Source: Aneurinibacillus sp.
GTDB lineage: Bacteria; Bacillota; UBA5301; DYFA01
DNA length: 64,000 bases
Direction: 5' to 3'
Assembly: GCA_020725425.1 (NCBI GenBank)
Contig: DYFA01000045.1
Location: 70,924 to 134,923 of the forward strand
Positions 5,210 to 59,810 of this stretch are shown here, piece by piece (the first letter of the stretch is position 1; each line of letters begins with the position of its first letter). A program made the translations under genes and the position numbers. The notes below the pieces were generated by a model. The model was given only the letters and a program-made list of their open reading frames with translations. It ran no database searches and was not told the DNA's origin.

Positions 5210-5448
5210 ATAGACCCTCCTCCCCCAGGAATCAAAGCGGCCTGTTTCCCGGTGTCGAGAAACAGGCCCCGTGCCCGCTGGGTTGATTTCCTGTCTCTCC
5301 GGCAGCCCGGCTGTCGTAGCCTCCGTTTGGCTGTAGACCCGCAGCTTTGCGTCTCCCTCTCGCTGGCAGGATTAGCCAATGAAAGGTGGAACAACTATCT
5401 CACCAAAGCGCAAGGGGGTCGCCTTGTGTGAGCCGGGGAGGGAGAGCG

Positions 5449-21536: not shown

Positions 21537-23663
21537 CTACGCCGGGCGGTCAGCCGGTTGAGCCGCCGGTTCGGCCAGGACGTGGGCCAGCGCCTCGTCC
21601 ACCGTCTCCACCGGGACCACCTCGATACCCCGCAGGTTGGGCGGCACGTCCTTCCGGTTCTCCGCCGGGATGATGACCTTGCGGACGCCCGCCTGCTTGG
21701 CCCCGTAGATCTTCTCGTAGATCCCGCCCACCGCCCGCACCCGGCCCTGGATCGACAGTTCGCCGGTGACTGCCACGTCCTGGCGCACCGGTCGGCCTTC
21801 GACCGCCGAGTAGACCACAAGCAGCACTGCCGTCCCGGCCGACGGCCCGTCGATCCGCCCGCCGCCCACCACGTTGACGTGGACGTCGTACTCGGAGAGC
21901 TCCTTCCCGGTCAGCCGGCGGAAGACGGAGGCGGCGTTGAAGACCGAGTCCTTGGCCATCGAGCCCGCGGTCTCGTTGAACCGGAGCAGGCCCTTGCCCG
22001 GCTCGCGGGCCGGGAAGGCCACCGCCTCGAGCTCGATCACCGAGCCGAGGAAGCCGCTCACCCCCAGGCCGAAGACCTTGCCCACCTCCGCCGACTCGGA
22101 CGCCCGCACCGTGATGTTCGGGGTCAGCCGGCTGGACTGATAGACCTCGCGGATGTCCTCGCAGGTCACGACCACCCGGAGAAACTCCGCCGCGGCGGCG
22201 ATCTCCCGGGCCGCCCGGAGGATGGCCTCCCGGATCTGGCCCGGCCCGGCGCCCGGCGGCGCCGCGACCTCGGCCTGCCCAAGCTGGACGGTTGACGCCT
22301 TTTCCTCCCAGCGCTCCGGATGAGCCGCCACTTCCCGGTAGAGGGCGACCCCGTAGGCGTCGGCCAGGATCTGCGTCGCCTTGCGCCCCTCCATGGTGTA
22401 CTCGGCGATCAGCTCCGGCACCTCGTCCTCGAGGGTCACGTGGAGGCGGTCCGCCGCCTGCCGAATGATGCGGACGATGTCGTCCGGGGTGAGGGGCTCG
22501 AAGAAGATCTCGGCGCAGCGCGACCGCAGCGCCGGGCTGATCTCCGAAGGGTCACGGGTGGTGGCGCCGATCAGGATGAAGTCGGCTGGCGCCCCCTCTT
22601 CGAACAGCTTCTTCACGTACTTCGGCACGTTCGGGTCGGTCGGGTCGTAGTAGGCCGAGTCGAACGACACCCGCTTATCCTCGAGCACCTTGAGGAGCTT
22701 GTTCTGGAGCAACGGGTCCAACTCACCGATCTCGTCGATGAAGAGGATGCCGCCGTGAGCCTCGGTGACCAGGCCGAGCTTCGGTTCGGGTACTCCGCCC
22801 TCCGCCAGGTCGCGCCGGGCCCCCTGGTAGATGGGGTCGTGGACCGACCCGAGGAGCGGGTTGGTCACCTCCCGGGGATCCCACCGCAGGGTTGCGCCGT
22901 CCGTCTCGACGAACGGGGCGTTGGGGGCAAAGGGTGTGAAGGGCAGCCGCTTCGCCTCCTCCAGAGCCAACCGGGCCACGGTGGTCTTGCCGACGCCGGG
23001 CGGCCCGTAGAGGATCACGTGCTGCGGATAGGGCGAGGCGATCTTGGCGAAGAGGGCCTTGATCGCCCGCTCCTGGCCGACCACTTCGGAGACGTGGCGG
23101 GGCCGCAGCGCTTCGACGGCCGACCGCGAGAGGTGGCGCTTCTCCAACTCCTCGAGCTCGGACAGCTTCTTGAGCGTCTGGGGGTTCTCGGGGCCGGAGT
23201 CCTCCTTGAGGACCTGCATCTTGATCTCCTTGACGTAGTCCTCGTGGCGCTGCTGCATCCGCTCGGCGATCTTCTTCTCGATCTTGTCCTCCACGGTCTT
23301 CCGCGCCAAGAGGTCGGCGATCTCATCCTCCACCTGGTTCAGGACAGCCGGGATCTCCTCTGCCGGCGGCAGTTCGTCTATAGTCGGATCCTCGTATACC
23401 AGCCGTTCCAGCGCCAGGACCCGCTCCCGCAAGTCCGGAGAGCGCATGAGGTGCAGCGCCTCCAGTTTCCCCGCTTTCAGGATCAGCTTGTCCGACCCGT
23501 ACAGGCTCGAGAGCAGCCCGAAGAGGGCGGCCACCTGCCGCTTCTGTTGCTCCTCCTCGCTCCACCGCTCTCCCTCAGGTAGGTTCTTGCCCTCCAGGAT
23601 CCTGCGGATGAACCCCTTCACGTAGTTGCTCCTTTCACGAACCGCCTTGGGGTAACGGCGCAC
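21537..23663 (-). CDS. lon: Lon-family ATP-dependent protease (sporulation-type LonB/LonC-like)
   Basis: AAA+ Walker A 'GPPGVGKTT'. Lon proteolytic domain with the catalytic Ser motif 'DGPSAG', followed by the Lys-containing region. Confidence 0.85.
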   Translation of the reverse strand: MRRYPKAVRERSNYVKGFIRRILEGKNLPEGERWSEEEQQKRQVAALFGLLSSLYGSDKLILKAGKLEALHLMRSPDLRERVLALERLVYEDPTIDELPPAEEIPAVLNQVEDEIADLLARKTVEDKIEKKIAERMQQRHEDYVKEIKMQVLKEDSGPENPQTLKKLSELEELEKRHLSRSAVEALRPRHVSEVVGQERAIKALFAKIASPYPQHVILYGPPGVGKTTVARLALEEAKRLPFTPFAPNAPFVETDGATLRWDPREVTNPLLGSVHDPIYQGARRDLAEGGVPEPKLGLVTEAHGGILFIDEIGELDPLLQNKLLKVLEDKRVSFDSAYYDPTDPNVPKYVKKLFEEGAPADFILIGATTRDPSEISPALRSRCAEIFFEPLTPDDIVRIIRQAADRLHVTLEDEVPELIAEYTMEGRKATQILADAYGVALYREVAAHPERWEEKASTVQLGQAEVAAPPGAGPGQIREAILRAAREIAAAAEFLRVVVTCEDIREVYQSSRLTPNITVRASESAEVGKVFGLGVSGFLGSVIELEAVAFPAREPGKGLLRFNETAGSMAKDSVFNAASVFRRLTGKELSEYDVHVNVVGGGRIDGPSAGTAVLLVVYSAVEGRPVRQDVAVTGELSIQGRVRAVGGIYEKIYGAKQAGVRKVIIPAENRKDVPPNLRGIEVVPVETVDEALAHVLAEPAAQPADRPA

Positions 23664-41887: not shown

Positions 41888-44416
41888 CTACCCCCGCTCC
41901 CTACCGGCCGTCAGTTCCTGGGCCAGCCGGACCGCCGCCACGGCGTCCCGCCCGTAGCCGTCCGCCCCGATCTGCCGGGCGAACTCCTCGGTCACCACCG
42001 CCCCGCCCACCATGACCTTCGCCGGGAGGCCCGCCGCCTGCAGAGCCTCGATCACCCGGCCCATCCCGACCATGGTAGTGGTCATCAGAGCGGAGAGACC
42101 CACCAGCCCGGCCCGCTCCGCCCGGGCCGCCTCGACCACCCTCGCCGCCGGGACGTCCCGGCCCAGGTCGACCACTCGGAACCCGTGGTTCTCCAGCATG
42201 ACCGCCACGATGTTCTTCCCGATGTCGTGGATGTCGCCCTCCACGGTGGCCAGGACCACGGTTCCGCGGCCGGCCGGAGCGCCACCCCGGGCGAGGTGCG
42301 GTTTGAGCTCGGCGAAGGCCGCCCGGGCGGCGTCCGCCGAGAGCATCAACTGCGGTAGAAAGTATTCACCGGCCTCGTAGCGGCGTCCCACTTCCTCGAG
42401 AGCCGGCACCACCGCCCGATCTACGATCTCGAGAGGATCCGACCCGGCCAGGGCCTTGGCCACCAAGTTCGGCGTCTTTTCGGCTTCCCCTTCTACAATC
42501 GCCCGGTAGAGAGCGGCGACGCTGTCGCCCTCAGCCGCGGGAGGCGGTTCGGGCATCCGGGCGGCCGCCGGTGCAGGCAGAGAACCGGCAGTATCCGCCG
42601 CCTGCGGCCGCCGCTCCTCCTTGGGCTGAGTGGCCAGGTAGACCCGGGCGTGGCGGTCCCGGTTCACCAGGACCGCCCCCGCCTGCAGCGTCTCCCAGAC
42701 CCGGGCATCCAGGGGGTTGACGATGGCCGCGTCCAGCCCCGCCCCCAGGGCCATCGCCAGGAAGGTGGCGTTGAGCAGGGATCTTCCCGGCAGCCCGTGG
42801 GAGACGTTGCTGACCCCCAGGACCGTCCCCACCCCGAGCTCCTCCCGGATCAGCCGCACTGCCCGGAGCGTCTCGGCGACCTCGGCCTGCTGCGCCCCGG
42901 CCGCCAGGACCAGACAGTCGATCAGGAGCTCCTCCCGCCGCAACCCGGCCGCCTCCGCCGCCGCGACGATCCGGCGGGCGATTGCCAGCCGCTCTTCCGC
43001 CCGCGGAGGTATGCCTCGCTCATCCAGGGTCAACCCGAGGACGGCCGCCCCGTATCGCCGGGCGAGCGGCAGAACCTCCGCCAGGACCTCCTCCTTGCCG
43101 TTGACCGAGTTCAGCAGGGCTCGTCCGTGGAAGATCTCCAACCCGGCTGCCAGGGCCTGGGCGTTGGCCGAGTCGATGCTCAGCGGGACCGGCACAGCCG
43201 CCTCGACCGCCGCCACCGCCGCTCGCATCGCCGCGGCCTCGTCCACCCCGGGCACCCCGACGTTCAGGTCGAGCACCTTCGCCCCGGCGGCCACCTGCGC
43301 TTTGGCCTCGTCCCGGTAAACCCCGAATTCCCTCGCCCGCACCGCCTCGGCCAGCCTCTTCCGGGCGGTCGGGTTGAGCCGTTCGCCGATGACCACCGGC
43401 AGCTCCTCCGGCCCGATCGCCACCACTCCGCCCGGACCGGCGAGGAGGGTCCGCCGCGATCCTCCGGCCACCCGGGGGGCCCCACCCTTCCCCGCCGCCT
43501 CGACCGCCCGGCGGAGGGCCCGGATGTGGTCCGGCGTGGTGCCGCAGCAGCCGCCGACCAGCGTCGCCCCGGCCGCCAGAAGCTCCTCCCCGGCCCGCCC
43601 GAACTCCTCCGGCCCCTGGGGGTAGACAGCCCGTCCCGCCTCCAGGCGGGGCAGGCCGGCATTGGGCTGAACCGCCACCGGAACCCGCGCTACCGCCGCC
43701 ATCCGCCGGATAAGCGGGACCAGCTCCCGGGGCCCCAGCGAGCAGTTGGCCCCGAGGAAGATCGCCCCGAGCCCCTCCAACACCACGGCCACCGTCTCAG
43801 GATCGGCCCCCAAGAGAGTCCGCCCGTGAGCGTCAAAGGTGAAGGTGCAGGCCACCGGAATCCCCGCGTCCCGGGCCGCCAGAACTGCCGCCCGGGCCTC
43901 GCCCAGGTCGGAGAAGGTCTCCAGGAAGATGAAGTCCACCCCGCCGGCGGCCAGCGCCTCGATCTGCTCCCGGTAGACGTCGTAGGTTTCGGCAAAGGAA
44001 AGCGGCCCGAAGGGCTCGACGAACTCTCCGGTCGGCCCTACGTCCCCGGCGACCAGGGCGTTCCCGCCCGCCGCCGCCACCGCCTCCCGGGCGAGCCTGA
44101 CCCCGGCCTGGTTCAGCTCCGCCACCGCCCTGCCCAGCCCAAAGGCGGAGAGTTTTCGGCGGTTAGCACCGAAGGTGTTGGTGGTGACGACCCGAGCTCC
44201 GGCCTCCAGGTAGGCCTGATGGATCCTCCGGACGGCCTCCGGACGGGCGGTGTTCCAAGTCTCCGGGCACTCCCCGGGGCGTAACCCGGCCGCGATGAGC
44301 TGAGTTCCCATCGCCCCATCCAGCAGGACCGGCCCCCGGTCGAGGAACACCCCAAGCCGCGCCGGACCCGGTCGGGCCACTTCGTTTCGCCGTCCGTCGC
44401 CCATCTGCGTCACCAT
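41888..44416 (-). CDS. metH: Cobalamin-dependent methionine synthase, short form (Hcy-binding + pterin-binding + B12-binding; no AdoMet reactivation domain)
   Basis: 'LLDGAMGTQL', pterin-binding domain, and B12 motif 'DIHDIGKNIV'. The ORF ends after the B12 domain. The ORF N-extension is spurious. Confidence 0.85.
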   Translation of the reverse strand: MVTQMGDGRRNEVARPGPARLGVFLDRGPVLLDGAMGTQLIAAGLRPGECPETWNTARPEAVRRIHQAYLEAGARVVTTNTFGANRRKLSAFGLGRAVAELNQAGVRLAREAVAAAGGNALVAGDVGPTGEFVEPFGPLSFAETYDVYREQIEALAAGGVDFIFLETFSDLGEARAAVLAARDAGIPVACTFTFDAHGRTLLGADPETVAVVLEGLGAIFLGANCSLGPRELVPLIRRMAAVARVPVAVQPNAGLPRLEAGRAVYPQGPEEFGRAGEELLAAGATLVGGCCGTTPDHIRALRRAVEAAGKGGAPRVAGGSRRTLLAGPGGVVAIGPEELPVVIGERLNPTARKRLAEAVRAREFGVYRDEAKAQVAAGAKVLDLNVGVPGVDEAAAMRAAVAAVEAAVPVPLSIDSANAQALAAGLEIFHGRALLNSVNGKEEVLAEVLPLARRYGAAVLGLTLDERGIPPRAEERLAIARRIVAAAEAAGLRREELLIDCLVLAAGAQQAEVAETLRAVRLIREELGVGTVLGVSNVSHGLPGRSLLNATFLAMALGAGLDAAIVNPLDARVWETLQAGAVLVNRDRHARVYLATQPKEERRPQAADTAGSLPAPAAARMPEPPPAAEGDSVAALYRAIVEGEAEKTPNLVAKALAGSDPLEIVDRAVVPALEEVGRRYEAGEYFLPQLMLSADAARAAFAELKPHLARGGAPAGRGTVVLATVEGDIHDIGKNIVAVMLENHGFRVVDLGRDVPAARVVEAARAERAGLVGLSALMTTTMVGMGRVIEALQAAGLPAKVMVGGAVVTEEFARQIGADGYGRDAVAAVRLAQELTAGRERG

Positions 44417-44967
44417 CCCCTGCCAGGCAGGGCGCCGCCCCACCCGGTCGCCGAATCCCGCCTTGCCTCTGCCCCCGGCTTGACAGCTTTGCGCATGGAG
44501 ACCACCGGCACCCGGGCGCCGTCCGAGCGCACCACAACCCGCTCGTCGTAGGCCTCGTATCCCAGCGAGGCATACAGCCGGACGTTCTGCTGTATTTCCG
44601 CCCGGACGTTGCACCAGACAACGCTCTCCCCGTTCTGCCGGGCGTACTCCTCGAGCCAGCCAACGATTGCCCTGGCTATGCCCCTTCGCCGGAAACCCGG
44701 CCGCACCGCAAGGCGTTTGAAATAGAGGCCGTCCTTCGAACGGAGGAACCGGACGGACCCCACCGCCACGCCGTCCACCAGACAAAGCGCTGCTTGCTCC
44801 ACGCCCTCCCGCATGAGGCCCTCGACGTCCTCCAGGCTCTCGCTCAGCGCCCCCGATGGGGTAGGCAGGTTGCGGTACTCTGCGAAGGCGTCGAGCGTCA
44901 CTGAATGAACCAGCGGGGCCTCCTCCGGGGTCGCCAACCGGATCTCCACTTCACCCTGACTGTTCAT
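44410..44967 (-). CDS. GNAT-family N-acetyltransferase
   Basis: 'FKRLAVRPGFRRRGIARAIVGWLEEYARQNG' acetyl-CoA-binding motif A. Start 'MNSQGEV'. Confidence 0.75.
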   Translation of the reverse strand: MNSQGEVEIRLATPEEAPLVHSVTLDAFAEYRNLPTPSGALSESLEDVEGLMREGVEQAALCLVDGVAVGSVRFLRSKDGLYFKRLAVRPGFRRRGIARAIVGWLEEYARQNGESVVWCNVRAEIQQNVRLYASLGYEAYDERVVVRSDGARVPVVSMRKAVKPGAEARRDSATGWGGALPGRGW

Positions 44968-46835: not shown

Positions 46836-47662
46836 TCGTCATAAGGGACCAGCGCCCGGCCCTGAGCCGCCGCGAGTCGGCGCGCCGCCGGCGCCGGCTG
46901 GACGATGGCGTCCACCCCCGCCTCCACCGCCGCTACATCGAGTGCCTCCCGGTACCGCCCCCCCGGGCGCATGCAGCCCAGGGTGAGCCGGGCGCCGGGC
47001 AGGCGTTTCCGGGCGGCGGAGAGGAAGGCTGCCACCTCCTCGACCGGCGGGGCGCTCCGCCCCGCGTAGCGGGTCCCGGGCGTCGGGATGAAGACGAGCA
47101 CCACCAGGGCGTCGACTCCTTCCGCCACTAACCGGTCCAGGGCCGCGCCTTCCGGGCCGAGCCCGCCGCCGCGCAACCCGAGGCAGAGGTGGGGCACTAC
47201 AGGGAGCCGGGCCCGCAACGCCCGCAGGGCGGCCACGAACCTTTCCGGGCCGGCCTCTAAGCCGTAGACCTCCCGCAGCGTATCAGCGTCCGCGACGAAG
47301 TCGAGCGAGGCGACGTCCGCCCAGCCGGCGAGCGCCTCGGCTTCCGCCTCCTCCACCAGGCCGGGATGGGCGTTCAACCGGAACCGGCGGCGCAACCGGC
47401 GCAGCCGGCCGGCCTCCCGGGCCAGCGGCACCACGCCCCGGCGGTCACATCCCCCGCTGACGAGCAGGCTCTTGATTCGCCGCCAGCTTCTCCCTTCCTC
47501 CTGACCGGCCTCAACCGGCTCCAGCCCGACGGTGCGCAGATCGGCCATCCCGGCCAGGTATCGCCGGCCGCAGTGGGCGCAGTTCAGGGCGCACTCCGTC
47601 CCGGTGACGCTCACCGCCCGGGTCGCCCGGGGCCAGACGCAGATCAGCGGCCGGGGGTCCAC
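46799..47662 (-). CDS. Second radical-SAM protein (LipS partner-like)
   Basis: '[10 protein letters not shown]' CxxxCxxC, a TIM-barrel-like alternation, and a C-terminal CC pair. Confidence 0.6.
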
Positions 47663-49101
47663 CGCAGGTCGGGCTGGCGGGCCGCCCGGGCCTCGTCGAG
47701 GCGGCGGACCGGCGTGTGGTGCGGAGCGTCCTTCACCAGCTCCGGTTCCTCTTCCGCCTCCCGGGCAATCTGAGCCATGGCCGCCGCGAAGGCATCCAGC
47801 GTCTGCTGACTCTCGGTCTCGGTCGGCTCGATCATCAGCGCCTCCTCGACGATCAGCGGGAAGTAGATCGTCGGGGCGTGGAAGCCGAGGTCCAGGAGGC
47901 GTTTCGCCATGTCCAGGGTATGGACGCCCCGGGCCTTCTGCCGGCTCCCTGAGAGCACGAACTCGTGCATGCAGGTCCGGTCGAAGGGCACCGCGAAGTG
48001 CGGCCGCAGCTTCACCCGCAGGTAGTTGGCGTTCAGCACGGCGTCCTCGCTCACCTGCTCGAGCCCCTCCGGCCCCACCGCCCGCAGGTAGGCGTAGGCC
48101 TTGAGCGCCACCAGGAAGTTGCCGTAGAACGCCTTGACCTTGCCGATGGACTGCGGCCGGTCGTAGGCCAGGCGGAACCCGTCCGGTCCCTTTTCCACCA
48201 CCGGCACCGGCAGGAACGGCACGAGCGCCTCCTTGACGCCGACCGGCCCCGAGCCCGGGCCGCCGCCGCCATGAGGCGTGGCGAAGGTCTTGTGGAGGTT
48301 CAGATGGACCACGTCGAAGCCCATGTCGCCGGGGCGGGCCTTACCCAGAATAGCGTTGAGGTTGGCCCCGTCGTAGTACAGGAGGGCGCCGGCAGCGTGC
48401 ACGGTCCGGCTGATCTCGACGATCTGCTCCTCGAAGAGCCCCAGCGTGTTAGGGTTGGTCAGCATCAGGGCCGCCGTGTCGGGGCCGACCGCCGCCCGGA
48501 GTCTCTCCAGGTCCACCATGCCCCGCTCATCGGAGGGCACGGAGACCACCTCGAACCCGGCGAGAGCGGCCGAGGCCGGGTTGGTCCCGTGGGACGAGTC
48601 CGGGACCAGGACCTTCTTCCGCTGCTCTCCCTCGCCCCGGGCCCGGTGATAAGCAGCGATGAGGAAGAGGCCGGTCAGCTCGCCGTGGGCCCCCGCCGCC
48701 GGCTGCATGGTCATTCTGGCCATCCCCGTGACCTCGCAGAGGTCCCGCTCCAGCTCCCAGAGGAGCGCCAGCGCCCCCTGGACGGTCGTCTCCGGCTGGT
48801 AGGGGTGCAGCCCGGCGAAGCCCGGCAGTTCCGCCACCGCCTCGTCGATCTTGGGGTTGTACTTCATCGTGCAGGAGCCGAGCGGGTAGAAACCGACGTC
48901 CACTCCGTAGTTCAGCCGGGAGAGGTTGGTGAAGTGGCGGACCACGTCCACCTCGCTCACCTCGGGCAGCATCGGCGCCTCCTTGCGCAGCGCCTTCGCC
49001 GGCAGAAGCCGCTCCACGGGCTTCTGCGGCACGTCCGCCGCGGGGAGAGAGTAGCCGCGCCGCCCGGGAGACGAGATCTCGTACAACAACGGCACGCTCA
49101 T
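47644..49101 (-). CDS. gcvPB: Glycine dehydrogenase (decarboxylating) subunit 2
   Basis: Start '[17 protein letters not shown]'. PLP-Lys region present. ATGA overlap with gcvPA. Confidence 0.9.
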
Positions 49102-50447
49102 GCCCGCTTCGCCTCCTCCGCCAGCGCCTCGACCAGCCGGTCGATCGCCGCCTTGCTCTTCGTCTCCGTGACACAGACCAGCAGGGCGTCGGTCAAGTCC
49201 GGGTAGAACCGCCCCAGCGGCAGTCCGGGCAGGATCCCCCTCGCCGCCAGCCGTTCGGCCAGCTCCTCCGCCGGCCCCGGCACCCGCACTACGAACTCGT
49301 GGAAGAACGGCCCCGGGAAGGCAAGTTTGAAGCCGGGCAGAGCGCTCAAGCGGTCCGCGGCATAGTGGGCCTTCTGTAGGCAAAGCTCAGCCAGTTCTTT
49401 TAGCCCCTGCGGCCCCAGGAGCGAGAGATGCACGGTGAAGGCGAGGGCGCAGAGCGCCTCGTTGGAGCAGATGTTGCTCGTGGCCTTCTCCCGCCGGATG
49501 TGCTGTTCCCTCGTCTGGAGGGTCAAGACGAACCCCCGCCGCCCGTCCCGGTCCACCGTGGCGCCGACGATCCGCCCCGGCATCCGCCGGACCAGGCTCT
49601 CCCGGGCGGCCATAAAGCCCACGTACGGCCCGCCGAACCCGAGAGGGTTGCCGAGCGGCTGTCCCTCACCCACGCAGAGGTCCGCCCCGTAGGCCCCCGG
49701 CGCTTCGAGCAGCCCGAGGCTCACCGGGTTAGCGACCACGATGAGGAGCGCCCCCTTGGCGTGGGCCGCCTGGGCCAACTCTTCCCCGGCCTCCACCAGC
49801 CCGAAGAAGTTGGGGTTCTGCACGATGACGGCCGCCGTCTGTTCCGAGACCTGCGCTGCCGCCGCCGCCGGGTCGAGCGCCCCCTCCGGCGCCGGCAGTT
49901 CCCGGACCGTCACCTCCCACTGCCGGGTGTAGGTCTTGAGAACCTCCCGGTATTCCGGGTGGACGTTCGCCCCGATCAGAACCTCCGTCCGCCGGGTGTG
50001 GGCGAGGGCCATCGCCGCCGCCTCGGCCACCGCCGTGGCCCCGTCATAGAGCGAGGCGTTCGCCACGTCCAGCCCGGTCAGAGCCGCCACGTAGCTTTGG
50101 AACTCGTAGATCGCCTGAAGGGTCCCCTGGCTGACCTCCGGCTGGTAAGGGGTGTAAGCGGTGTAAAACTCGGCCCGCCCGGTGAGCTGGCCGACCGCGG
50201 CCGGGACGTAGTGCTCGTAGGCCCCGGCGCCCAGGAAAGAAAGGAGCCCGTTAGTGGGCGTGTTCCGCCCGGCCAGCGCCTGGAGGTGGCCCGCCAGTTC
50301 CATCTCGGAGAGGGGTCCCGGCAAATCCAGCGGGCGGCGGAGCCGAACCGCCTCCGGGATCGGGGCGAAGAGTTCCTCGACCGACTTGACCCCGCAGGCC
50401 TTGAGCATCTCCGCCCGCTCCCGCTCGGTGTGCGGCAGGAAGTTCAT
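49098..50447 (-). CDS. gcvPA: Glycine dehydrogenase (decarboxylating) subunit 1
   Basis: '[20 protein letters not shown]...[16 protein letters not shown]'. Confidence 0.9.
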
Positions 50448-50839
50448 CGGCCGCCGCCTTCTTCCCCTCCGACGAAGGCCGCATAATCGTCGGCCGACAG
50501 CAGGTTATCCAGCTCGCCCGGGTCGGACAGCTCGATCACCGCGATCCAGCCGTCCCCGTAGGGATCCTGGTTGATGGTCTCCGGATGGTCGGAGAGGTTC
50601 TCGTTCACCTCGACCACCGTTCCGGAGACCGGGGCGTAAACCTCGGAGACCGCCTTGACCGACTCGACCACCGCGAACTCCCCGCCCTGGGTGGTCGTGT
50701 CCCCCACCGCCGGCAGCTCGACGAAGACGACGTCCCCCAGCTCCTTCTGGGCGTGGTCGGTGATCCCCACGATCGCCCGCTTCCCTGAGACCCTGACCCA
50801 CTCGTGTTCCCGGGTGTATTTCAGCTCCTTCGGATACAT
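50444..50839 (-). CDS. gcvH: Glycine cleavage system H protein (lipoyl carrier)
   Basis: 'MYPKELKYTREHEWV...ESVKAVSEVYAP' with the lipoyl-Lys in 'SVKA'. Confidence 0.9.
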   Translation of the reverse strand: MYPKELKYTREHEWVRVSGKRAIVGITDHAQKELGDVVFVELPAVGDTTTQGGEFAVVESVKAVSEVYAPVSGTVVEVNENLSDHPETINQDPYGDGWIAVIELSDPGELDNLLSADDYAAFVGGEEGGGR

Positions 50840-50948
50840 CAGTCGCCCTCCTCCGCTCTTGATTCCCGTATAATTCCGGGCCTCCGTTTCCGGCTCCTGC
50901 CAGTGTCGAGCCGGAGTGTTGACACTTCGCTCAACTACGCTCATACGT

Positions 50949-52094
50949 CTATGCGCCGGGTGCGGCCGGCTGCTTGGGCGGCTTGCAGGTGCGGGCGGGG
51001 ACGAACGGCGTCCGCACCACCTTGGCCGGCACCGCCTTCCCCCGGATCTCGACCCCGATCTCCTGGCCCTCCGCCGCCAGATCAGCCCGTAGATACCCCA
51101 GCCCGATGTTCCGGCCCAGGGTCGGAGAGAAGGACCCGCTCGTGACCTCCCCCGCCGCCGCCCCATCCGGCGCCTTGAGCCCGTAGCCGTGGCGGGCCAC
51201 GCCGCCCTCCACGACGAACCCGGCGAGCTTCCGCTTGACCCCCTCCGCCTGCTGTTTGAGCAGCGCCTCCCGGCCGATGAACTCGCCCTTCTCCAGCTTC
51301 ACCACCCAGTTCAGGCCGGCCTCGAGGGGCGTCGTTTCGTCCGTCAGGTCGTTGCCGTAGAGCGGGTAAGCCATCTCCAGCCGGAGCGTGTCCCGAGCCC
51401 CCAGCCCGACCGGAACCAGGCCCAGCGGCTCACCCACGGCCAGGAGTCTCCGCCAGAGCCTCGGCGCCTCCGCCGCGGCCACGTACAGTTCGAACCCGTC
51501 CTCCCCGGTGTAGCCGGTCCGGGCGATGATCGCCGGAACCCCGTCGGCCTTCCCCTCCACGAAGCGGTAGTAGTAGAGTTCCCCCAGCGACTGGTCCGCC
51601 ACCTGGGCCACGATGTCGGCCGCCTTTGGCCCCTGCACCGCGATCAGCGCCGTCTCCAGGGTGGCATCCCTGAGCTCCACGCCGGGGCCCGGCCCCTGGG
51701 CGGCTACCCAGGTCCAGTCCTTGGTCACGTTGGCCCCGTTCACCACCACCATGAACCCCCTGGTCCGCCGGTAGACGACGATGTCGTCCACCACCCCGCC
51801 GGACGGGTTGAGGAGCATGGAGTAGTGGGCCTGCCCGACCGCCAGCCTTCCTAGGTCGTTGGTCGTCAGCCGCTGCAGGAAGGCCTCGGCTCCCGGCCCC
51901 TCGACAAAGAACTCGCCCATGTGGGAGAGATCGAAGAGACCGGCCTTCTCCCGGGTGGCCACGTGCTCGGCGACGATGCCTGTATACTGGACCGGCATCT
52001 CCCAACCGCCGAAAGCGGTGAAGCGGGCTCCCAGGGCCTGGTGTTCGGCATGGAGCGGGGTCCGTTTGAGGGCTTCACGGGTCTGGTTCTCCAC
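50949..52094 (-). CDS. gcvT: Aminomethyltransferase (glycine cleavage T protein)
   Basis: GTG start with RBS GGAGGGAG. '[29 protein letters not shown]'. Confidence 0.9.
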
Positions 52095-52132
52095 AGCTGT
52101 CTCCCTCCGTTCGGTACTGTTTCCCCAGTCCC

Positions 52133-52175
52133 CCAAAAAGAAAAGACAGGGGAACGCGCCCGTTCCTCTGTCCTT
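52133..52175 (-). terminator. Intrinsic terminator forming the riboswitch expression platform
   Basis: RNA 'GGAACG-GGCG-CGUUCC' hairpin followed by 'CCUGUCUUUUCUUUUU', about 40 nt upstream of the gcvT RBS. Confidence 0.5.
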
Positions 52176-52360
52176 CTCGCCTGAGAGATGCCCTGGGCGA
52201 CTTTCCCTCCGCCCGGGTTGCTCCTTCGGCGGGCTTTGCGCCGCCTCTCCAGAGTGCCGTCCTCCCGGGCTTCCGCTTGCCTGAGAGTTTCAGCGAGGGT
52301 GGCCGCTCCTCGCCTTGCTCCTTCGGCGCCCGACTCTCCGGGTCTCTCCCCCGGGACTCC
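52147..52360 (-). ncRNA. Tandem glycine riboswitch (two aptamers)
   Basis: Minus-strand RNA aptamer 1: 'GGGGGAGAG...GCGCCGAAGGAGCAAGG...ACUCUCAGGCAAG'. Aptamer 2: 'CUCUGGAGAG...GCCGAAGGAGCAACC...UCUCUCAGGCGAGAAGGACAGAG'. Both match the glycine riboswitch consensus and sit upstream of gcvT. Confidence 0.85.
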
Positions 52361-52585
52361 TCCGGCCGGTATGCGATTGTCGGTCGCTTCAAGTCTATTC
52401 GCCCGCTGCTATTATTGGGCACCGGCGGGGCCAATTCCTGCCAGACCCGGACCCCCTGGCGCGGGGAGACATATAATGGCGCCAGAACGGGCGATGGTCC
52501 CAGGGAAAGTGGGGTGGAAGGATGGAGACCCTTCTGCAGCGGCTGGTCAATCCGATTCTCAGGCGGTGCAACCGCACGGTCATCC

Positions 52586-53593: not shown

Positions 53594-55852
53594 TCAGCCG
53601 GAGACACCTTCAGGTGCCGACGTCTCTAGCCTGCTGTCCTGGTCCGCCTCAGATTCTTCGGTGCTGCCACCCTCGGATACTGTCGTTTCTGTGACATGGC
53701 GGTGTACCGATGCGAATTGGTGCGCCACCCGTTCGTCGATGTGCCCTTTCCGATAGTTCTCAGCGCGAGGAGACTCTAGTGCTGACCCGTAGACCCTGCT
53801 CAGCGCCTTAAGCACCTGCCCCGGGTCCACAACTAATCTCAAAGAATCGTACTGCATACGTTCAAAATCTCCTGGGGCCGGACCTGAGTCGCTGCCCCAA
53901 GCAGTGCCCAGGTAGCACTTAAGCAGTTCTACTGCATTCCGAGGGTTTTCTTCCATTAGCTTAACTAGGTAATCGTTGCTTTCCTGCCGGGACCCCCAAT
54001 GCGCCCATACGTAGAGTAGTGCAGGGGCTTCTTTTCGGAAGTCTTCGTGAAGAACATGTGTTTGGCTGTACTCGCGAATTCGATTTGCCGCAACCCTGCC
54101 AATCTCGTCTTCCTGGCTCTTGGGTAAGGTTGCCTCCTCGCCTTCTTCAGACGCGCGGAGCCATCTGTAGAACTCGACAGCCAGTGACAACGGTTCTATA
54201 CTCTTGATCAGAAGCTTAGCCACATCGAATCGTTGCTGGACATCAGGAATGTTCTTGAGCAACGTCGCCAGCAGGGCAGCTGCTCTTGAGAAGGGACTCA
54301 GTGAAAGAAACGTTTCGGTATTCGGAAACTCCGGGCCAACCTCTCCGATGGCTAGGGCCAAGTTAACCGACGTCTCTGGAGGCAGTACCTCGGCCCTTCT
54401 GATGAACTTGGTCAAAACCCTGTCGGGCCCTGCGTCCTTGATTGCCGCACGAAGCTCGGGGAGACAAGCGCTTACTCTCTCCCTCCTCTCAAGTCCAGCT
54501 AGTAGGGAGAGTATCGCGTTGTCAGAGACATCGCCGAGGGGAATTGCATACGAGAAGTAGCGCCGGAAGTAGTCCTGGGAGGCGACTCGTTGTTCCTCTG
54601 CCCAATGCTTGTCCCAGTCGGATCCGTATGCCGCGTCGCCATATAGCCCGCACCCGGATCTCGGGAACAACACACCAAGCAATTCTCTTGCAGCATCCTT
54701 GTCCTCAAGCGGAAGCTCGGCTAGAGCTTCGTCAATGAGTTGTTGTTTTCTCTTTCGTTGGGACTCATCGCGAGAGCTCTTCAGAACAGCATCAGGATTG
54801 TCACGAACCATCGAGTAGAGCTTTGGATAGAAGACCCTCATGCCTTCAACTAGCATCAGATCTACGGGATTGACCTCACCTTTGAGAATCGGGAGGGCGA
54901 ACAGCAGTGCGTTGCCGTATCGTTTCGCCATCCTTGGTGTCCGAAGTCGGGGCCCGAAGGCTGTGATAAAGCGGCTGCTGAACGAGTTGGCATCTTCCTT
55001 CTTGAGTGTAATACCTGCAAGAGAAAGTGCTTCGTTTGCTGCCATAAAACATATTTCTACGAGAGACGCTTCGTCAGCGGGAGGAAGATGCAGCGGGACC
55101 TGCACGATCTTATCAAGGAAATCGTGGCCCGCTGCCTCGTCCGAGCCATACCGCTCCGCCAACGCTTTGGCCACCATGTCATCGTCGAACGCCAAGACGT
55201 AGCTTGTGTATGCAAAATCCGCGGTCAACTTTACGAGCTTAAAGATTGCGTGAATTTCTGTCTTATCCAGACGATCAATGTCGTCCACCAGCACTACCAC
55301 GCGCTTCTTTGAGCTCGTTAGAATGGTTTCAATCTTCTTCTTTAGGGCTTCTGCATCTATTGAAGTGAGTTTCTCTCCGACCTTTTGTAGACTGCTAGCA
55401 TAGGGGTTGACAGGGACCAGTAGCGCTGCATACTGCATGAGCAGTCCAAAGATCTCTGTGGTAGAAGTAAGACTCCTATGTAGCGCCGATGCCAAGGTCC
55501 TGAAGTAGGCTATTATGAGTTGGGTCTCGTCCTCGCATTGCCAAGGATTGAACCAAACGCAGATAATGTTGGCATGATGTTCAAGTTCATGCTTGATAAA
55601 ATGGAGGACTGTCGATTTCCCCTCTCCCCACGCGCCGTATATCCCTACTACCAGACTGCTGGAATCCTCAGATGCAGCTATCGTGTCCGCTACTCTCTTG
55701 GCAAAAGGCCACCGTCGAAAGCGATCTTGACTTGGATCCGTTATCGGAGAGTCCGCAAAGTAAGCACCTTGCGCTTCCGTTGACCTATTCTTGCGGGGTT
55801 GGTGGCCAGCTCGGCCCCTCCTGCTCTTGAATGGCCACATTCGCCGCATCAC
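53594..55852 (-). CDS. KAP-family P-loop NTPase
   Basis: 'DRFRRWPFAKRVADTI', Walker A 'GAWGEGKST', 'FNPWQ', and Walker B 'VVLVDDIDRL'. 752 aa. GC is markedly lower than the flanks. Confidence 0.8.
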   Translation of the reverse strand: MMRRMWPFKSRRGRAGHQPRKNRSTEAQGAYFADSPITDPSQDRFRRWPFAKRVADTIAASEDSSSLVVGIYGAWGEGKSTVLHFIKHELEHHANIICVWFNPWQCEDETQLIIAYFRTLASALHRSLTSTTEIFGLLMQYAALLVPVNPYASSLQKVGEKLTSIDAEALKKKIETILTSSKKRVVVLVDDIDRLDKTEIHAIFKLVKLTADFAYTSYVLAFDDDMVAKALAERYGSDEAAGHDFLDKIVQVPLHLPPADEASLVEICFMAANEALSLAGITLKKEDANSFSSRFITAFGPRLRTPRMAKRYGNALLFALPILKGEVNPVDLMLVEGMRVFYPKLYSMVRDNPDAVLKSSRDESQRKRKQQLIDEALAELPLEDKDAARELLGVLFPRSGCGLYGDAAYGSDWDKHWAEEQRVASQDYFRRYFSYAIPLGDVSDNAILSLLAGLERRERVSACLPELRAAIKDAGPDRVLTKFIRRAEVLPPETSVNLALAIGEVGPEFPNTETFLSLSPFSRAAALLATLLKNIPDVQQRFDVAKLLIKSIEPLSLAVEFYRWLRASEEGEEATLPKSQEDEIGRVAANRIREYSQTHVLHEDFRKEAPALLYVWAHWGSRQESNDYLVKLMEENPRNAVELLKCYLGTAWGSDSGPAPGDFERMQYDSLRLVVDPGQVLKALSRVYGSALESPRAENYRKGHIDERVAHQFASVHRHVTETTVSEGGSTEESEADQDSRLETSAPEGVSG

Positions 55853-55892: not shown

Positions 55893-58800
55893 TCACCCGC
55901 ACTTCGAGTACCCGCAGCTGACGCAGACGACGCAGCCCGCCTCGTGGGTCAGCGTGCAGCCGCATTCAGGGCAGAGGTTCTTCTCGAGCGCGGCGTGGTA
56001 GCTGTCGCCGCTGGCCGCTACCTCCAGGGGCGCCCGGTGGGTCTCGCCGGTCGGCTCTTCGCAGCGGGGGTCGGCCCCGGGCGGCGGCTGCGGATCCGGC
56101 GCCAGCGGGATGGCGGTCGGCGCCTTCGGGACTCCGCCGCCGAAGGGGAGGCCGGGCTGGACGGCCCCGCCGGTCCGCTCGACGTACTTCTTGATCGCCT
56201 TGGCGATGGCGTCCGGGCAGGAGGTCACGTGAACCCCCGGGCGGCGCAGGCAGGCCGGGCAGCGGATGCCCCGCAACTGCTCGTAGATGGCGTCCACGGA
56301 GATCCCCGACCGCAGGGCGATCGAGATCAGGCGGCTGGTCGCTTCCGACTGGGAGGCGCATCCGCCCTCCCGGCCGGTGTTGGTGAAGACCTCGCAGACG
56401 CCGTACTCGTCGGCGTTGACGCTGACGTACAGGTTTCCGCAGCCGACCTGCACCTTCTCGGTGGTCCCGGCGGTCACCTGGGGCCGCGGGCGGGGCACGA
56501 TGGCCACGGGTGGGTGGACCGGACCCGAGCCGTCCACTTCCTTCGCCTTCGTCCCGGCGGTCAGCACCTGCTCCTCCCGGCTGCCGTCCCGGTAGACTGT
56601 CACCCCCTTACACCCCTTGGCGTACGCCAGGAGATACGCTTTGGCCACGTCCTCCCGGGTCGCCTCGTGGGGGAAGTTGATCGTCTTCGAGACGGCGTTG
56701 TCGGTGTACTTCTGGAACGCCGCTTGGATGGCGATGTGCCACTCCGGGGCGATCTGGTGCGCCGTGACGAAAAGCTGCCGGTAGCGCTCGGGCACCTCCT
56801 CGATGTCCTCGAGCGACCCCTTCTCGGCGATCCTCTCCATGAGCTGCGGGGTGTAGAACCCTTCCCGGCGGGCGATCTCCTCGAAGAGCGGGTTCACCTC
56901 GACCAGCCTCTGGTTGTCCAGGACGTTCCGGACGAAGCAGACCGCAAAGAGCGGCTCGATCCCCGAGGAGCAGCCGGCGATGATGCTGATCGTCCCCGTC
57001 GGGGCGATGGTGGTGGTGGTGGCGTTGCGGACTGGCCTGGCTCCGGGCTTGTCCAGGATACTCCCCTTGAAGTTGGGGAAGGGTCCCCGCTCTTCGGCCA
57101 AGTCCGCTGAGGCCTCCCAGGCCGTCTTCTGGATGAAGGACATGACCTCCTCGGCGATCTCGGCCGCCCGGTCGCTGTCGTAACGGACGCCGAGCTTGAT
57201 GAGCAGATCGGCGAAACCCATCACTCCGAGCCCGATCTTCCGGTTCGCCTTGACCATCTCGTCAATGATGGGCAGAGGGTACCGGCTGGCGTCGATCACG
57301 TCGTCCAGGAACCGCACCGCCAGCCTGACCACCTCGGCCAGTTTCTCGTAGTCGATCTCCGCCCGGTCCCCGACCTCCTCCACCATCTTGGCCAGGTTGA
57401 TCGAGCCGAGGTTACAGGCCTCGTAGGGCAGAAGGGGCTGCTCGCCGCAGTTGGAGACGACGATCCCGTTGGCGATGAAGGAGTGGGTCATTGGCTCGGT
57501 CAGGTCGAAGACCGGCTTCTCCCCGACGGGCACGACCGAGGCTACCCTGTCGGTGAAGCTGCGGGCGTAGAAGCCGCGCTTACGGCCACGGAGCTCGGCC
57601 ACCCGCTCAGCATACTTGTTGCCGAGGAACCCGATCTCGTCCAGGAACAGCTCTAGATCCTCCCGGCTCACCTGCAACTCGAAGAGGACCCCGTCACTCT
57701 CGTACCGCCGCTCCTCTCCGGCCACAGTCAGGTACCGGAAGGCCTGACGCGGGGTCCGGGATCGGTCATAGATCCGGCTCTTGACGCCTAGCGCCAGGAG
57801 GAGCCGCTGCACGTCCTGGAGCAGCAGGAGGGACTTGGCCGTCAGGCGGGCGTAGGCCGTCTGGTTCTTCCCGAGCGCCAGCGTCCCGTCGGCGGTGAAC
57901 AGGCCGCGCAAGAATCCGACCACCGCCTCTCGGGAAGCCGTGAAGAGGGCCTCCGGAACCCGCTTCTCCCGAGCCTCCCCAGGCACCACCCCGAGCTTCC
58001 GGAGGAACTCCACGAAGTAGCGGCTGTGGTAGGATAGGTGAAAGACCCCGTTCGCCCGCCGGATAGGCTTGACCTCGGTCCCGTACCACCGGTTGAGGAC
58101 CGGTGCCAGGCGCTCCATCGCCTCCCGGTCGTCGGCGGCGAAGGTGAACCCGACGCGGCAGTTCCGCTCGCCGTCCACGAGCCAGCCGTCGCCGACCAGC
58201 CATCCCAGCGCCTGCCCCAAGTCCTCGCTCCATTCGTGGGGGAAGGCATGGCGGTAGGTCCGCCCGTTCCGCCCCTGGACCTCCGCCTCCGGGACGAAGG
58301 GCAGGGCCGCCTTCTCCGGAAAACCGCTCTCGCCGGACTGGAGCAAGACGGAGTGGAAGCCCGGCTTAAGCTCACCCGCCCGGACCCAGCCCCGGGTTGT
58401 CATGATCTTGTGGTCCGGAGTGACTTCCAGGCTGTATCCGGCTTCGGTCGTCACCCGGACGACTGGCTTGACACCGCTGGCGAAGGCCCTTAGGACCGGA
58501 TGGAGCGTCACCCCGCCGGTGACCGCGCTGCTCCCGGCTGTACCGTTCTTGAGGCAGGTCAACGGAAGCACTCGGTCGTCCGTCGCCACGGCGACTTCTC
58601 TCCCGGCAGCTTCACGTACTAGCCGTTCCATGCGTATCAGCCCGTCGGCGGTGGAGACCAGAGCATCCCCGACTACGCACGGGTTGGTGCTCTCGATCTC
58701 CCCCACGGCCGGTGTCGGGTTGTCCCGGTTGATCCGGTCGAGGAAGATGATGCCCGGTTCCCCGTTCTTCCAGGCCCCCTCCACGATGAGGTCGAAGACC

Positions 58801-59495
58801 TCCCGGGCCCGGAGCTTCCGGACCACCCGGTTGTTGCGGGGGTTGACCAGCTCGTACTCCTCGTCTCTTTCCAGGGCCTCCATGAACTTGTCCGTGATCG
58901 CCACGGAGAGGTTGAAGTTGGTGAGGTCGCTGTTGTTCTCCTTGGCCGTGATGAACTCCAGGATGTCGGGGTGGTCCACCCGCAGGATGCCCATGTTGGC
59001 TCCCCGGCGCGTGCCCCCCTGTTTCACCGCGTCGGTGGCGGCGTTGAAAACCTTCATGAAGGAGATGGGCCCCGAGGCCACCCCGCCGGTCGTACGGACT
59101 TCGTCGTTCTTGGGCCGCAGGCGCGAGAAGCTGAACCCGGTTCCCCCGCCCGACTGATGGATCATGGCTGAGTACTTGATGGAGTCGAAGATCCCCGCCA
59201 TGGAGTCCTCGACGGGCAAGACGAAGCAGGCCGCCAGTTGCTGGAGGTCCCGCCCGGCGTTCATCAGGGTCGGCGAGTTGGGCATGAACTCAAGCCCGGT
59301 CATCAGGGCGTAGTAGCGGTCGGCCAGGGCCGCCACTTCCCCAGGGCTCTTGCCGTAGGCCGACTCGACCCCGGCGATGTTCTCCGCCACCCGGCGGAAC
59401 ATGTCCTCCGGGGCCTCGCAGGGTTTGCCGTCCTTCTTCTTCAGGTACCGCTTCTCGAGCACGCTCAGGGCGTTTCTCGAAAGGTTCAGACCCAT
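55893..59495 (-). CDS. nrdJ: Adenosylcobalamin-dependent class II ribonucleotide reductase, intein-containing precursor
   Basis: 'LEKRYLKK', 'FMPNSPTLMNAG', the catalytic 'NPC|GE' split by an insertion, and a C-terminal Cys-rich tail. 1200 aa, against about 790 aa without the insertion. Confidence 0.9.
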   Translation of the reverse strand: MGLNLSRNALSVLEKRYLKKKDGKPCEAPEDMFRRVAENIAGVESAYGKSPGEVAALADRYYALMTGLEFMPNSPTLMNAGRDLQQLAACFVLPVEDSMAGIFDSIKYSAMIHQSGGGTGFSFSRLRPKNDEVRTTGGVASGPISFMKVFNAATDAVKQGGTRRGANMGILRVDHPDILEFITAKENNSDLTNFNLSVAITDKFMEALERDEEYELVNPRNNRVVRKLRAREVFDLIVEGAWKNGEPGIIFLDRINRDNPTPAVGEIESTNPCVVGDALVSTADGLIRMERLVREAAGREVAVATDDRVLPLTCLKNGTAGSSAVTGGVTLHPVLRAFASGVKPVVRVTTEAGYSLEVTPDHKIMTTRGWVRAGELKPGFHSVLLQSGESGFPEKAALPFVPEAEVQGRNGRTYRHAFPHEWSEDLGQALGWLVGDGWLVDGERNCRVGFTFAADDREAMERLAPVLNRWYGTEVKPIRRANGVFHLSYHSRYFVEFLRKLGVVPGEAREKRVPEALFTASREAVVGFLRGLFTADGTLALGKNQTAYARLTAKSLLLLQDVQRLLLALGVKSRIYDRSRTPRQAFRYLTVAGEERRYESDGVLFELQVSREDLELFLDEIGFLGNKYAERVAELRGRKRGFYARSFTDRVASVVPVGEKPVFDLTEPMTHSFIANGIVVSNCGEQPLLPYEACNLGSINLAKMVEEVGDRAEIDYEKLAEVVRLAVRFLDDVIDASRYPLPIIDEMVKANRKIGLGVMGFADLLIKLGVRYDSDRAAEIAEEVMSFIQKTAWEASADLAEERGPFPNFKGSILDKPGARPVRNATTTTIAPTGTISIIAGCSSGIEPLFAVCFVRNVLDNQRLVEVNPLFEEIARREGFYTPQLMERIAEKGSLEDIEEVPERYRQLFVTAHQIAPEWHIAIQAAFQKYTDNAVSKTINFPHEATREDVAKAYLLAYAKGCKGVTVYRDGSREEQVLTAGTKAKEVDGSGPVHPPVAIVPRPRPQVTAGTTEKVQVGCGNLYVSVNADEYGVCEVFTNTGREGGCASQSEATSRLISIALRSGISVDAIYEQLRGIRCPACLRRPGVHVTSCPDAIAKAIKKYVERTGGAVQPGLPFGGGVPKAPTAIPLAPDPQPPPGADPRCEEPTGETHRAPLEVAASGDSYHAALEKNLCPECGCTLTHEAGCVVCVSCGYSKCG
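57450..58679 (-). mobile_element. Intein (410 aa) with LAGLIDADG homing-endonuclease domain inserted at the RNR thiyl-radical Cys site (coordinates +/-2 nt)
   Basis: Extein junctions: 'ESTNP|CVVGDALV...' (Cys1) and '...FIANGIVVSN|CGEQPLL' (terminal Asn, +1 Cys). LAGLIDADG motifs 'LGWLVGDGWLV' and 'VVGFLRGLFTADGTLA'. Confidence 0.8.
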
Positions 59496-59554: not shown

Positions 59555-59602
59555 CACACTATATCTAGTGGGAACGCCGTGTTCATCATACTATATGTGG
59601 TG
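59555..59602. promoter_or_regulatory. Two tandem NrdR boxes (~32 bp centre-to-centre) upstream of nrdJ, plus a possible third half-site at ~59534-59549
   Basis: 'CACACTATATCTAGTG' and 'ATACTATATGTGGTGT' match the NrdR palindrome acaCwAtATaTwGtgt. They sit in the low-GC 5' leader of nrdJ. Confidence 0.6.
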
Positions 59603-59810
59603 TCCGCAGGTAAAACGGGAAAGCAGCGCTTTCTGTGCCGCCTGGCTGGTTCTTCGCCAACTGCGCCTCCTACAGGAGCGCGTTTGGGCGTTTGGCTTGT
59701 TTCCTTCCGGGCGCCCACCCTAGCTGCGGTTCAGTGTTTATCCCCTCCTTGTTCACACTCCCCTCTCCCTGGCCAAGCCGATGAGCAGAGGGCACCGGGA
59801 GTTATGCACA

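Follow-up and report, generated by a model that had tools for sequence, protein, structure and literature searches.

In a 64-kb window of contig DYFA01000045.1 (assembly GCA_020725425.1), by which we mean the whole stretch of DNA that was analysed, a single unbroken reading frame codes for the precursor of a class II (adenosylcobalamin-dependent) ribonucleotide reductase (RNR), NrdJ, that carries one intein. Very probably the insert is a class-1 intein of canonical type that houses a two-motif LAGLIDADG homing endonuclease (HEN), positioned between Pro272 and Cys683 of this chromosomal NrdJ. It occupies 57450-58679 on the minus strand (1230 nt), exactly the interval that had been proposed in an earlier note on this DNA, and comprises 410 amino acids, residues 273-682 of the precursor, in which a HINT splicing domain is split by the LAGLIDADG domain. 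Throughout the text, coordinates are positions of the window, and amino acid numbers are those of the precursor or, where stated, of the intein (1-410).

The interrupted nrdJ gene and the two domains of its insert

The precursor is encoded by a continuous open reading frame (ORF) at 55893-59495 (minus strand; 1200 codons plus stop), whose product has a TSCPD domain and a Cys-rich tail at the C-terminus. The N-extein (58680-59495, minus strand, residues 1-272) ends in GEIESTNP, with Pro at position -1, and the C-extein (55893-57449, minus strand) comprises residues 683-1200 and the stop codon. The assignment of the host protein to class II RNR, made in the earlier note, was upheld by full-length curated NrdJ models, which the precursor matched above their cutoffs (NCBIfam NF006417, 1189 bits versus 961; TIGR02504 NrdJ_Z, 742 bits versus 400). 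Pfam recognised Ribonuc_red_lgN, Ribonuc_red_lgC (E 1.8e-137) and TSCPD on the precursor, the Ribonuc_red_lgC match forming one stretch from residue 88 to 968 that runs across the insert.

After removal of the intein, the spliced 790-aa sequence aligned to Thermotoga maritima NrdJ (1xjk/1xje) with E ~1e-126 and without a gap at the junction. In this alignment the radical loop N-P-C-G-E corresponds to N320-P-C322-G-E324 of 1xjk, as expected from the earlier proposal that the exteins restore the thiyl-radical Cys loop; the +1 Cys (C683, codon 57447-57449, minus strand) pairs with C322, and the Cys residues of LAACF and YEAC pair with C134 and C333. In the T. maritima enzyme C322 is the thiyl-radical Cys, and C134/C333 form the reducing pair. 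Because C683 aligns with C322, the putative second splicing nucleophile of the intein is, by this alignment, the same residue as the catalytic Cys of NrdJ. As to the exact point of interruption, the body of the earlier note placed it correctly between Pro and the catalytic Cys (NP/CGE, the slash marking the junction); its title, which gave NPC/GE, was off by one residue. The 1200-aa product should be annotated as an intein-containing NrdJ precursor, neither an unusually long RNR nor a fusion protein, and the expected products are a mature enzyme of ~790 aa and a free LAGLIDADG endonuclease.

The splice junctions read ESTNP/CVVGDAL...GIVVSN/CGEQPLL. The insert is in frame and missing from most relatives, the host sequence is continuous over the junction, and the insert begins with Cys (CVVGDALVST) and ends with an Asn that is followed by Cys, all of which are features of a class-1 intein; these terminal residues had been read correctly from the start. 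Blocks A, B, F and G, whose absence on alignment was named in the earlier note as an argument against an intein, were all present, and together with both Asp residues of the endonuclease motifs they are conserved across allelic inteins. Block A (58641-58679, minus strand, CVVGDALVSTADG) contains Cys1 as the presumed first nucleophile; in an alignment of 12 allelic inteins (A1), C1 and G13 were invariant and G4, D5 and T10 nearly so. Block B (58386-58439, minus strand, GYSLEVTPDHKIMTTRGW) carries the TxxH motif as T87-P-D-H90, with T87 and H90 invariant in A1, and could be aligned to the NpuDnaB, Mtu RecA and Ssp DnaB intein structures. Block F (57465-57515, minus strand, PVFDLTEPMTHSFIANG) includes D392 and H399 and was aligned to the C-terminal segment of the NpuDnaB intein; over its segment VFDLTEPMTHSFIANG, V390, N404 and G405 were invariant in A1, and D392 and S400 nearly invariant. 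Block G (57450-57464, minus strand, IVVSN) ends in Asn410, with Ser409 as the penultimate residue, and D392, H399, N410 and the +1 Cys are all in place.

Profile searches recovered the splicing domain at both ends of the insert: Pfam Intein_splicing matched with E 1e-10 (42.1 bits, cutoff 35.8), NCBIfam intein_Nterm TIGR01445 covered intein residues 1-94 (41.1 bits, cutoff 24.5) and intein_Cterm TIGR01443 covered intein residues 389-410 (20.7 bits, cutoff 15.6), besides partial matches to many NCBIfam models of other intein-bearing proteins. Among solved inteins the best sequence match was NpuDnaB (4o1r, E 2.5e-13), over the N- and C-terminal splicing segments; further matches were the Thermococcus/Pyrococcus VMA inteins 7qsu/7qss, Mtu RecA, Ssp DnaB, PI-TkoII and PI-PfuI. 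An AlphaFold2 model of the intein, for which a 30-sequence alignment (A2) served as input, reached a mean predicted local distance difference test score (pLDDT) of 91.7 and a predicted template modelling (TM) score (pTM) of 0.92. The HINT fold was present in this predicted model, whose Foldseek matches included Mtu RecA and the Ssp/Npu DnaB mini-inteins. The top Foldseek matches in the PDB were all bifunctional intein-endonucleases, namely TliVMA (7qsu, E 5e-21; 7qss), PhoVMA (7qst), PI-PfuI (1dq3, E 1e-16), PI-TkoII (2cw7) and PI-SceI, with stand-alone LAGLIDADG enzymes and mini-inteins after them. Taken as a whole, the profile and fold matches that mark the insert as an intein with an endonuclease lie far beyond chance.

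The endonuclease domain has the two LAGLIDADG motifs that had been claimed for it. Motif 1 (block C; 58179-58220, minus strand, LGQALGWLVGDGWL) covers intein residues 154-167 with the core LGWLVGDGWL and the acidic residue D164, and is conserved in full-length alleles of A1; motif 2 (block E; 57879-57923, minus strand, VVGFLRGLFTADGTL) covers intein residues 253-267 with the core FLRGLFTADGT and the acidic residue D264, and its L257 and D264 were invariant in A2. Pfam LAGLIDADG_3 matched intein residues 252-350 (E 8.6e-19, 68 bits, cutoff 22.5). In the model, strands come after both helix 152-164 and helix 250-264, in line with the alpha-beta-beta-alpha-beta-beta-alpha pseudo-dimer arrangement, with acidic-ended helices, of a two-motif LAGLIDADG enzyme; I-DmoI, I-Tsp061I and PI-PfuI were its structural matches in Foldseek. 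No second intein or endonuclease copy was found elsewhere in the 64-kb window.

Alleles, distribution and turnover at the insertion site

A scan of one genome per prokaryotic species yielded 80 related nrdJ loci, in 68 of which the insertion site was readable. The intein-free alleles for which the earlier note had proposed a check do exist in relatives: an uninterrupted TNPCGEQ was found in 54 of the 68 readable loci, and in the other 14 NP is directly followed by an insert of 154-412 aa and then by CGE, a proportion that is not a frequency, since the query held the intein and the ranking favours carriers. Carriers among these loci belong to Synergistaceae, Cloacimonadota, DPANN archaea (Aenigmatarchaeota, Micrarchaeia) and unclassified bacteria, and partial proteins with the NP/CGE junction are annotated at source as Omnitrophica, Thermoplasmatota, Poribacteria, Levybacteria, Anaerolineales, Actinobacteria and Methanobacteriota. 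Across phyla, the empty target site is near-invariant at codon positions 1 and 2 (59 intein-less alleles), which makes NP/CGE a stable homing target.

A first protein search gave only fragments of at most 720 aa, with a best intein identity of ~50%. When 1.84 billion 50%-identity representatives were searched exhaustively with HMMER, a homologue of 71% identity was revealed; 8897 proteins matched at E<=1e-3, of which 2600 reached E<=1e-10 and 299 reached E<=1e-30. Among the 145 best representatives that this search added, at least 129 had the NP/C and/or the /CGE junction. The profile NF006207 (PRK08332) has 1684 positions, many more than an NrdJ without an intein would need. It was colinear with the precursor in one stretch over both exteins and the intein, with precursor residues 119-810 on profile positions 701-1370 and intein residues 66-409 on positions 941-1240, which means that there is already a curated family of NrdJ proteins that carry an intein here. 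RNRs hold 211 inteins in bacteria, where they are the second most frequent host, and 43 in archaea, where they rank fourth (Novikova et al., PMC4760082). The element is thus of a known kind at a known hot spot, and its family is widespread in bacteria and archaea. The sequence itself is new, its nearest representative being 71% identical. An exact-sequence look-up of the precursor among public assemblies gave no match. The element adds one more case of inteins hitting those codons that are best conserved in an enzyme essential for supplying replication, and opens no long-standing question.

Many related NrdJ ORFs are overlong, with 1601 aa in L004, 1551 aa in L005 and 1213 aa in L075 (where NP/CGE is empty), and the representatives P0110, P0161 and P0180 reach 2300-2600 aa. 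One intein cannot account for such lengths, and at least two must be present in these precursors, inserted at further sites of the gene.

The closest full-length homologue, at locus L001 (representative P0070), has an intein of likewise 410 aa that aligned to the window intein without insertions or deletions, with 70.7% identity in protein and 71.6% in DNA; the exteins of the two are 83% identical. A second locus, L017, shares synteny with the window to either side of nrdJ, with DNA identities of 81% upstream, 84% in the C-extein and 87% downstream, and its exteins are 93% (N-extein) and 91% (C-extein) identical at the amino acid level. At NP/CGE it carries a 154-aa mini-intein (L017:6817-7278; CWTGDTLVWT...THRYFVVVSNGSSLTRAILSAN, ending ILSAN), ~38% identical to the splicing domain of the window intein. 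We considered whether this mini-intein might be a simple HEN deletion of the window intein and rejected it on the 38% identity, the different block F/G and the lack of a BLAST match between the two. A HEN-deleted member of the window intein's own family is instead found at L055, a 158-aa mini-intein with a nearly identical block F/G.

The simplest reading is that the full-length intein is ancestral in the clade and was replaced in the L017 lineage, because the more distant L001 shares the full-length intein of the window; independent invasions are the alternative. No signal of a co-conversion tract was detected in the extein DNA of the window compared with L017 and L001, identity near the junction being too uniformly high for the comparison to be informative. 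The L017 pattern fits a homing cycle of gain, loss and re-invasion and leaves the classification of the element unchanged. The trio of window, L017 and L001 is a small natural sample for studying how inteins turn over at a single site.

Predicted splicing and homing, and alternative explanations

From the residues in place, the following course would be expected. The ~133 kDa precursor would be translated and Cys1 would undergo an N-S acyl shift at the Pro(-1)-Cys1 bond; the +1 Cys would then attack the thioester, giving by trans-thioesterification a branched intermediate from which cyclisation of Asn410 would free the intein, and an S-N shift would form the Pro272-Cys683 peptide bond, restoring the TNPCGE finger loop with its Cys as the thiyl-radical site. 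The precursor is expected to be inactive, because 410 residues part the Asn and Pro from the Cys and Glu of the radical loop, and the earlier note's view that splicing would be obligatory for NrdJ activity is a sound inference. The excised 410-aa intein would act as a monomeric two-motif endonuclease, site-specific for intein-less nrdJ alleles, with a predicted cut at the conserved ...ACCAACCCG^TGCGGCGAGCAG..., and repair would then copy the intein in (homing). With the junction marked, the intein-less nrdJ target reads GGGGAGATCGAGAGCACCAACCCG^TGCGGCGAGCAGCCCCTTCTGCCC.

Several points weigh against this interpretation. That the protein splices and that the free intein cleaves DNA is what we infer from sequence. 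The penultimate His, a common though not strictly defining trait of inteins that helps the terminal Asn to cyclise, is replaced by Ser409. The residue at -1 is Pro, dictated by the host motif, and Pro at this position is generally unfavourable for the first acyl shift. Finally, the ratio of nonsynonymous to synonymous substitution rates (dN/dS, Nei-Gojobori) between the window intein and the L001 intein was 0.22 overall, with 0.18 in the N-terminal splicing part, 0.25 in the endonuclease (residues 136-370) and 0.19 in the C-terminal part, values that are approximate as dS is ~1.0 and near saturation; moreover, constraints of folding, and not nuclease activity, could account for the purifying selection seen in the endonuclease domain.

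With regard to the junction residues, the 12 aligned alleles end in SN (6), HN (4), HQ (L004) and AN (L017), and among the scored representatives HN (51) outnumbers SN (10), making Ser a minority state; Ser409 is kept in L001. Since both Ser409 and Pro(-1) are conserved traits of the family, they would not argue against function. Splicing without a penultimate His is documented, according to the citation of Chen, Benner and Perler (2000) in PMC8772380. Our literature searches found no citable paper that gives the exact insertion site or the effect of Pro(-1). For intein engineering, a natural intein with Pro at -1 and without a penultimate His is of modest practical value. In several allelic inteins Gln stands in place of the C-terminal Asn, as in L004 (L004:8203-9432), which ends HQ/C; 16 scored representatives end in HQ, AQ, GQ or TQ. 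A C-terminal Gln is atypical and is known in a few other inteins.

The base composition of the intein is close to that of the host gene (GC 67.1% against 67.0% in the extein; GC at third codon positions, GC3, 86% against 93%), and the composition profile has no step at the intein junctions. Because the composition matches the host gene and dN/dS is low, the intein is best described as an old resident under purifying selection on both activities, neither a recent arrival nor a decaying relic. This composition, fully ameliorated to the host, would also suit an intein that still splices but whose endonuclease activity is lost or being lost, so that the element is now fixed and passed on vertically as a passenger, without homing. 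We consider this possible, though clearly the less favoured account. It draws on the co-inheritance of intein and extein in L001 (71% against 83% identity), on the existence of HEN-less mini-inteins of the same family at this site (158 aa in L055, 154 aa in P0039/P0040) and on the fact that no copy was found in phage nrdJ genes: the phage search for allelic nrdJ inteins returned only distant inteins in portal, terminase and polymerase genes (20-26% identity), and thus gave no evidence of a phage vector. A decaying endonuclease is harder to reconcile with the retention of both D164 and D264, with a dN/dS of the endonuclease part that is no higher than expected of a constrained domain, with the complete lack of indels relative to L001 over 410 aa and with the confident model of the HEN domain.

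An intein that splices only conditionally, as a post-translational switch on the synthesis of deoxyribonucleoside triphosphates (dNTPs), seems improbable to us; conceivable forms are a Cys1-Cys+1 or Cys+1-Cys694 disulfide that holds the precursor unspliced under oxidising conditions, or a need for high temperature. Both junction nucleophiles are Cys, the +1 Cys lies in a redox-active site beside YEAC, and the suboptimal Pro(-1) and Ser409 could slow splicing; RNR is also among the most intein-rich proteins, for which a possible functional importance has been raised (Novikova et al., PMC4760082), and an RNR R2 intein has been reported to improve metal loading (PMC8772380). However, no sequence feature points specifically to regulation, there is no conserved extra Cys close to the junction (the conservation of C42 does not extend to L001), most relatives lack the intein, and the unrelated mini-intein in the nearest relative fits parasitism better than a tuned regulator. 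Marginally less probable again is a reading in which the intein is more than a passenger, a redox- or temperature-gated switch that would keep NrdJ inactive until conditions allow, with the catalytic Cys as +1 nucleophile and Pro(-1)/Ser409 tuning the rate. As a separate part of this reading, the two unrelated inteins found at one site in genomes with 81-87% identity in flanking DNA could record a recent replacement, a homing cycle in mid-progress. The least credible explanation by far is a dead insert, that is, no splicing at all, nrdJ as a pseudogene and dNTPs supplied by another RNR class elsewhere in the genome. The non-canonical penultimate Ser and Pro(-1) could be read in this way, and another RNR elsewhere in the genome is possible because only the window is visible; against it stand the intact frame of 1200 codons, the conservation of all the nucleophiles and of TxxH, strong purifying selection on intein and exteins (the latter 83-93% identical to relatives), a GC3 of 0.91 that is typical of expressed genes here, and the paired NrdR-like boxes kept upstream. 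A class-1 intein with its homing endonuclease is the reading we retain.

Genomic setting and comparison with known inteins

The boxes just mentioned are two 16-mers at 59556-59571 and 59588-59603, 32 bp apart and 60-110 bp upstream of the nrdJ start. On the minus strand they read CCACTAGATATAGTGT and ACACCACATATAGTAT, both palindromic, and they are the only matches in the 64-kb window with at most four mismatches to ACACWATATATWGTGT, which is reportedly the NrdR-box consensus, after work by Rodionov and Gelfand in 2005. Judged by these motifs, which are not part of the intein, nrdJ transcription is probably under NrdR control. A search for a cobalamin riboswitch upstream of nrdJ found none at Rfam gathering thresholds.

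Directly downstream of nrdJ lies a gene for a 752-aa KAP-family P-loop NTPase (53594-55852, minus strand; Pfam E 7e-49), in a stretch of ~50% GC compared with 67.7% for the window. In L017 the equivalent slot (L017:9041-9813) is taken up by another segment, of 960 bp, whose two small ORFs overlap and are a candidate antitoxin/PIN-toxin pair; this slot is a variable islet, and no flanking repeats were found around the KAP NTPase island. Elsewhere in the window, a sporulation-type LonC protease (21537-23663, minus strand; TIGR02903, 1005 bits, cutoff 679) and, at 18548-20299 (minus strand), a protein that has a spore-coat domain of the SafA/ExsA type suggest a high-GC endospore-forming Bacillota-like organism. 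The labels of the syntenic metagenome-assembled genomes, 'Chitinophagales' for L001 and 'Betaproteobacteria' for L017, look like mislabelling. A glycine riboswitch (52258-52361, minus strand, 51 bits) lies directly upstream of a gcvT-gcvPA-gcvPB operon (47644-52136, minus strand), after which come a radical-SAM/lipoate-ligase-like fusion gene and a gene for B12-dependent methionine synthase (41888-44785). A c-di-GMP-I riboswitch (5298-5387, minus strand, 55.5 bits) abuts the start of a plus-strand secretin gene of the PilQ/GspD-like type (5386-7998), and a GspE/PilB-type ATPase is encoded at 13923-15410.

Among known systems, the allelic TNP/CGE inteins of class II RNRs share with the window intein the host protein, the insertion point and the architecture of a HINT domain with a two-motif LAGLIDADG endonuclease, as well as matching blocks A (CV.GD.LV.T) and F/G (THSF.ANG...N/CGEQ). 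The window intein differs from them in sequence, with 71% identity to the nearest and ~50% or less to the others, and in having Ser in place of His. We take these TNP/CGE inteins to be the 'RIR1' inteins of InBase, and PRK08332 to have been built on the Pyrococcus RNR. The same bifunctional fold is found in PI-PfuI (1dq3), PI-TkoII (2cw7) and the TliVMA/PhoVMA inteins (7qss, 7qsu, 7qst), with Foldseek E values from 1e-16 to 5e-21 and TM scores of 0.55-0.63; the identity to the window intein is 14-20%, and the VMA and Pol inteins reside in other host proteins. PI-PfuI, the endonuclease of the Pfu RIR1-1 intein, also comes from a ribonucleotide reductase, and it appears from the layout of the NF006207 profile to sit at a different, more N-terminal RNR site.

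Mth RIR1 is a 134-aa mini-intein of the Methanothermobacter RNR that lacks an endonuclease and is naturally flanked by Pro at -1 and by Cys at +1. With this Pro in place it reportedly splices poorly in E. coli (Evans et al. 1999, J Biol Chem), and of the inteins studied by experiment it is probably the nearest precedent for a Pro(-1)/Cys1 junction. This intein is used in the pTWIN2 vector (PMC7784762). The R2 (NrdB) intein of Aquifex aeolicus is likewise of the LAGLIDADG type, splits catalytic residues of an RNR so that splicing is needed for the active site, and splices without a penultimate His (PMC8772380). It differs from the window intein in belonging to an unrelated intein lineage and in interrupting the di-iron site of a class I R2 protein, unlike the class II radical loop in which the intein described here is inserted.

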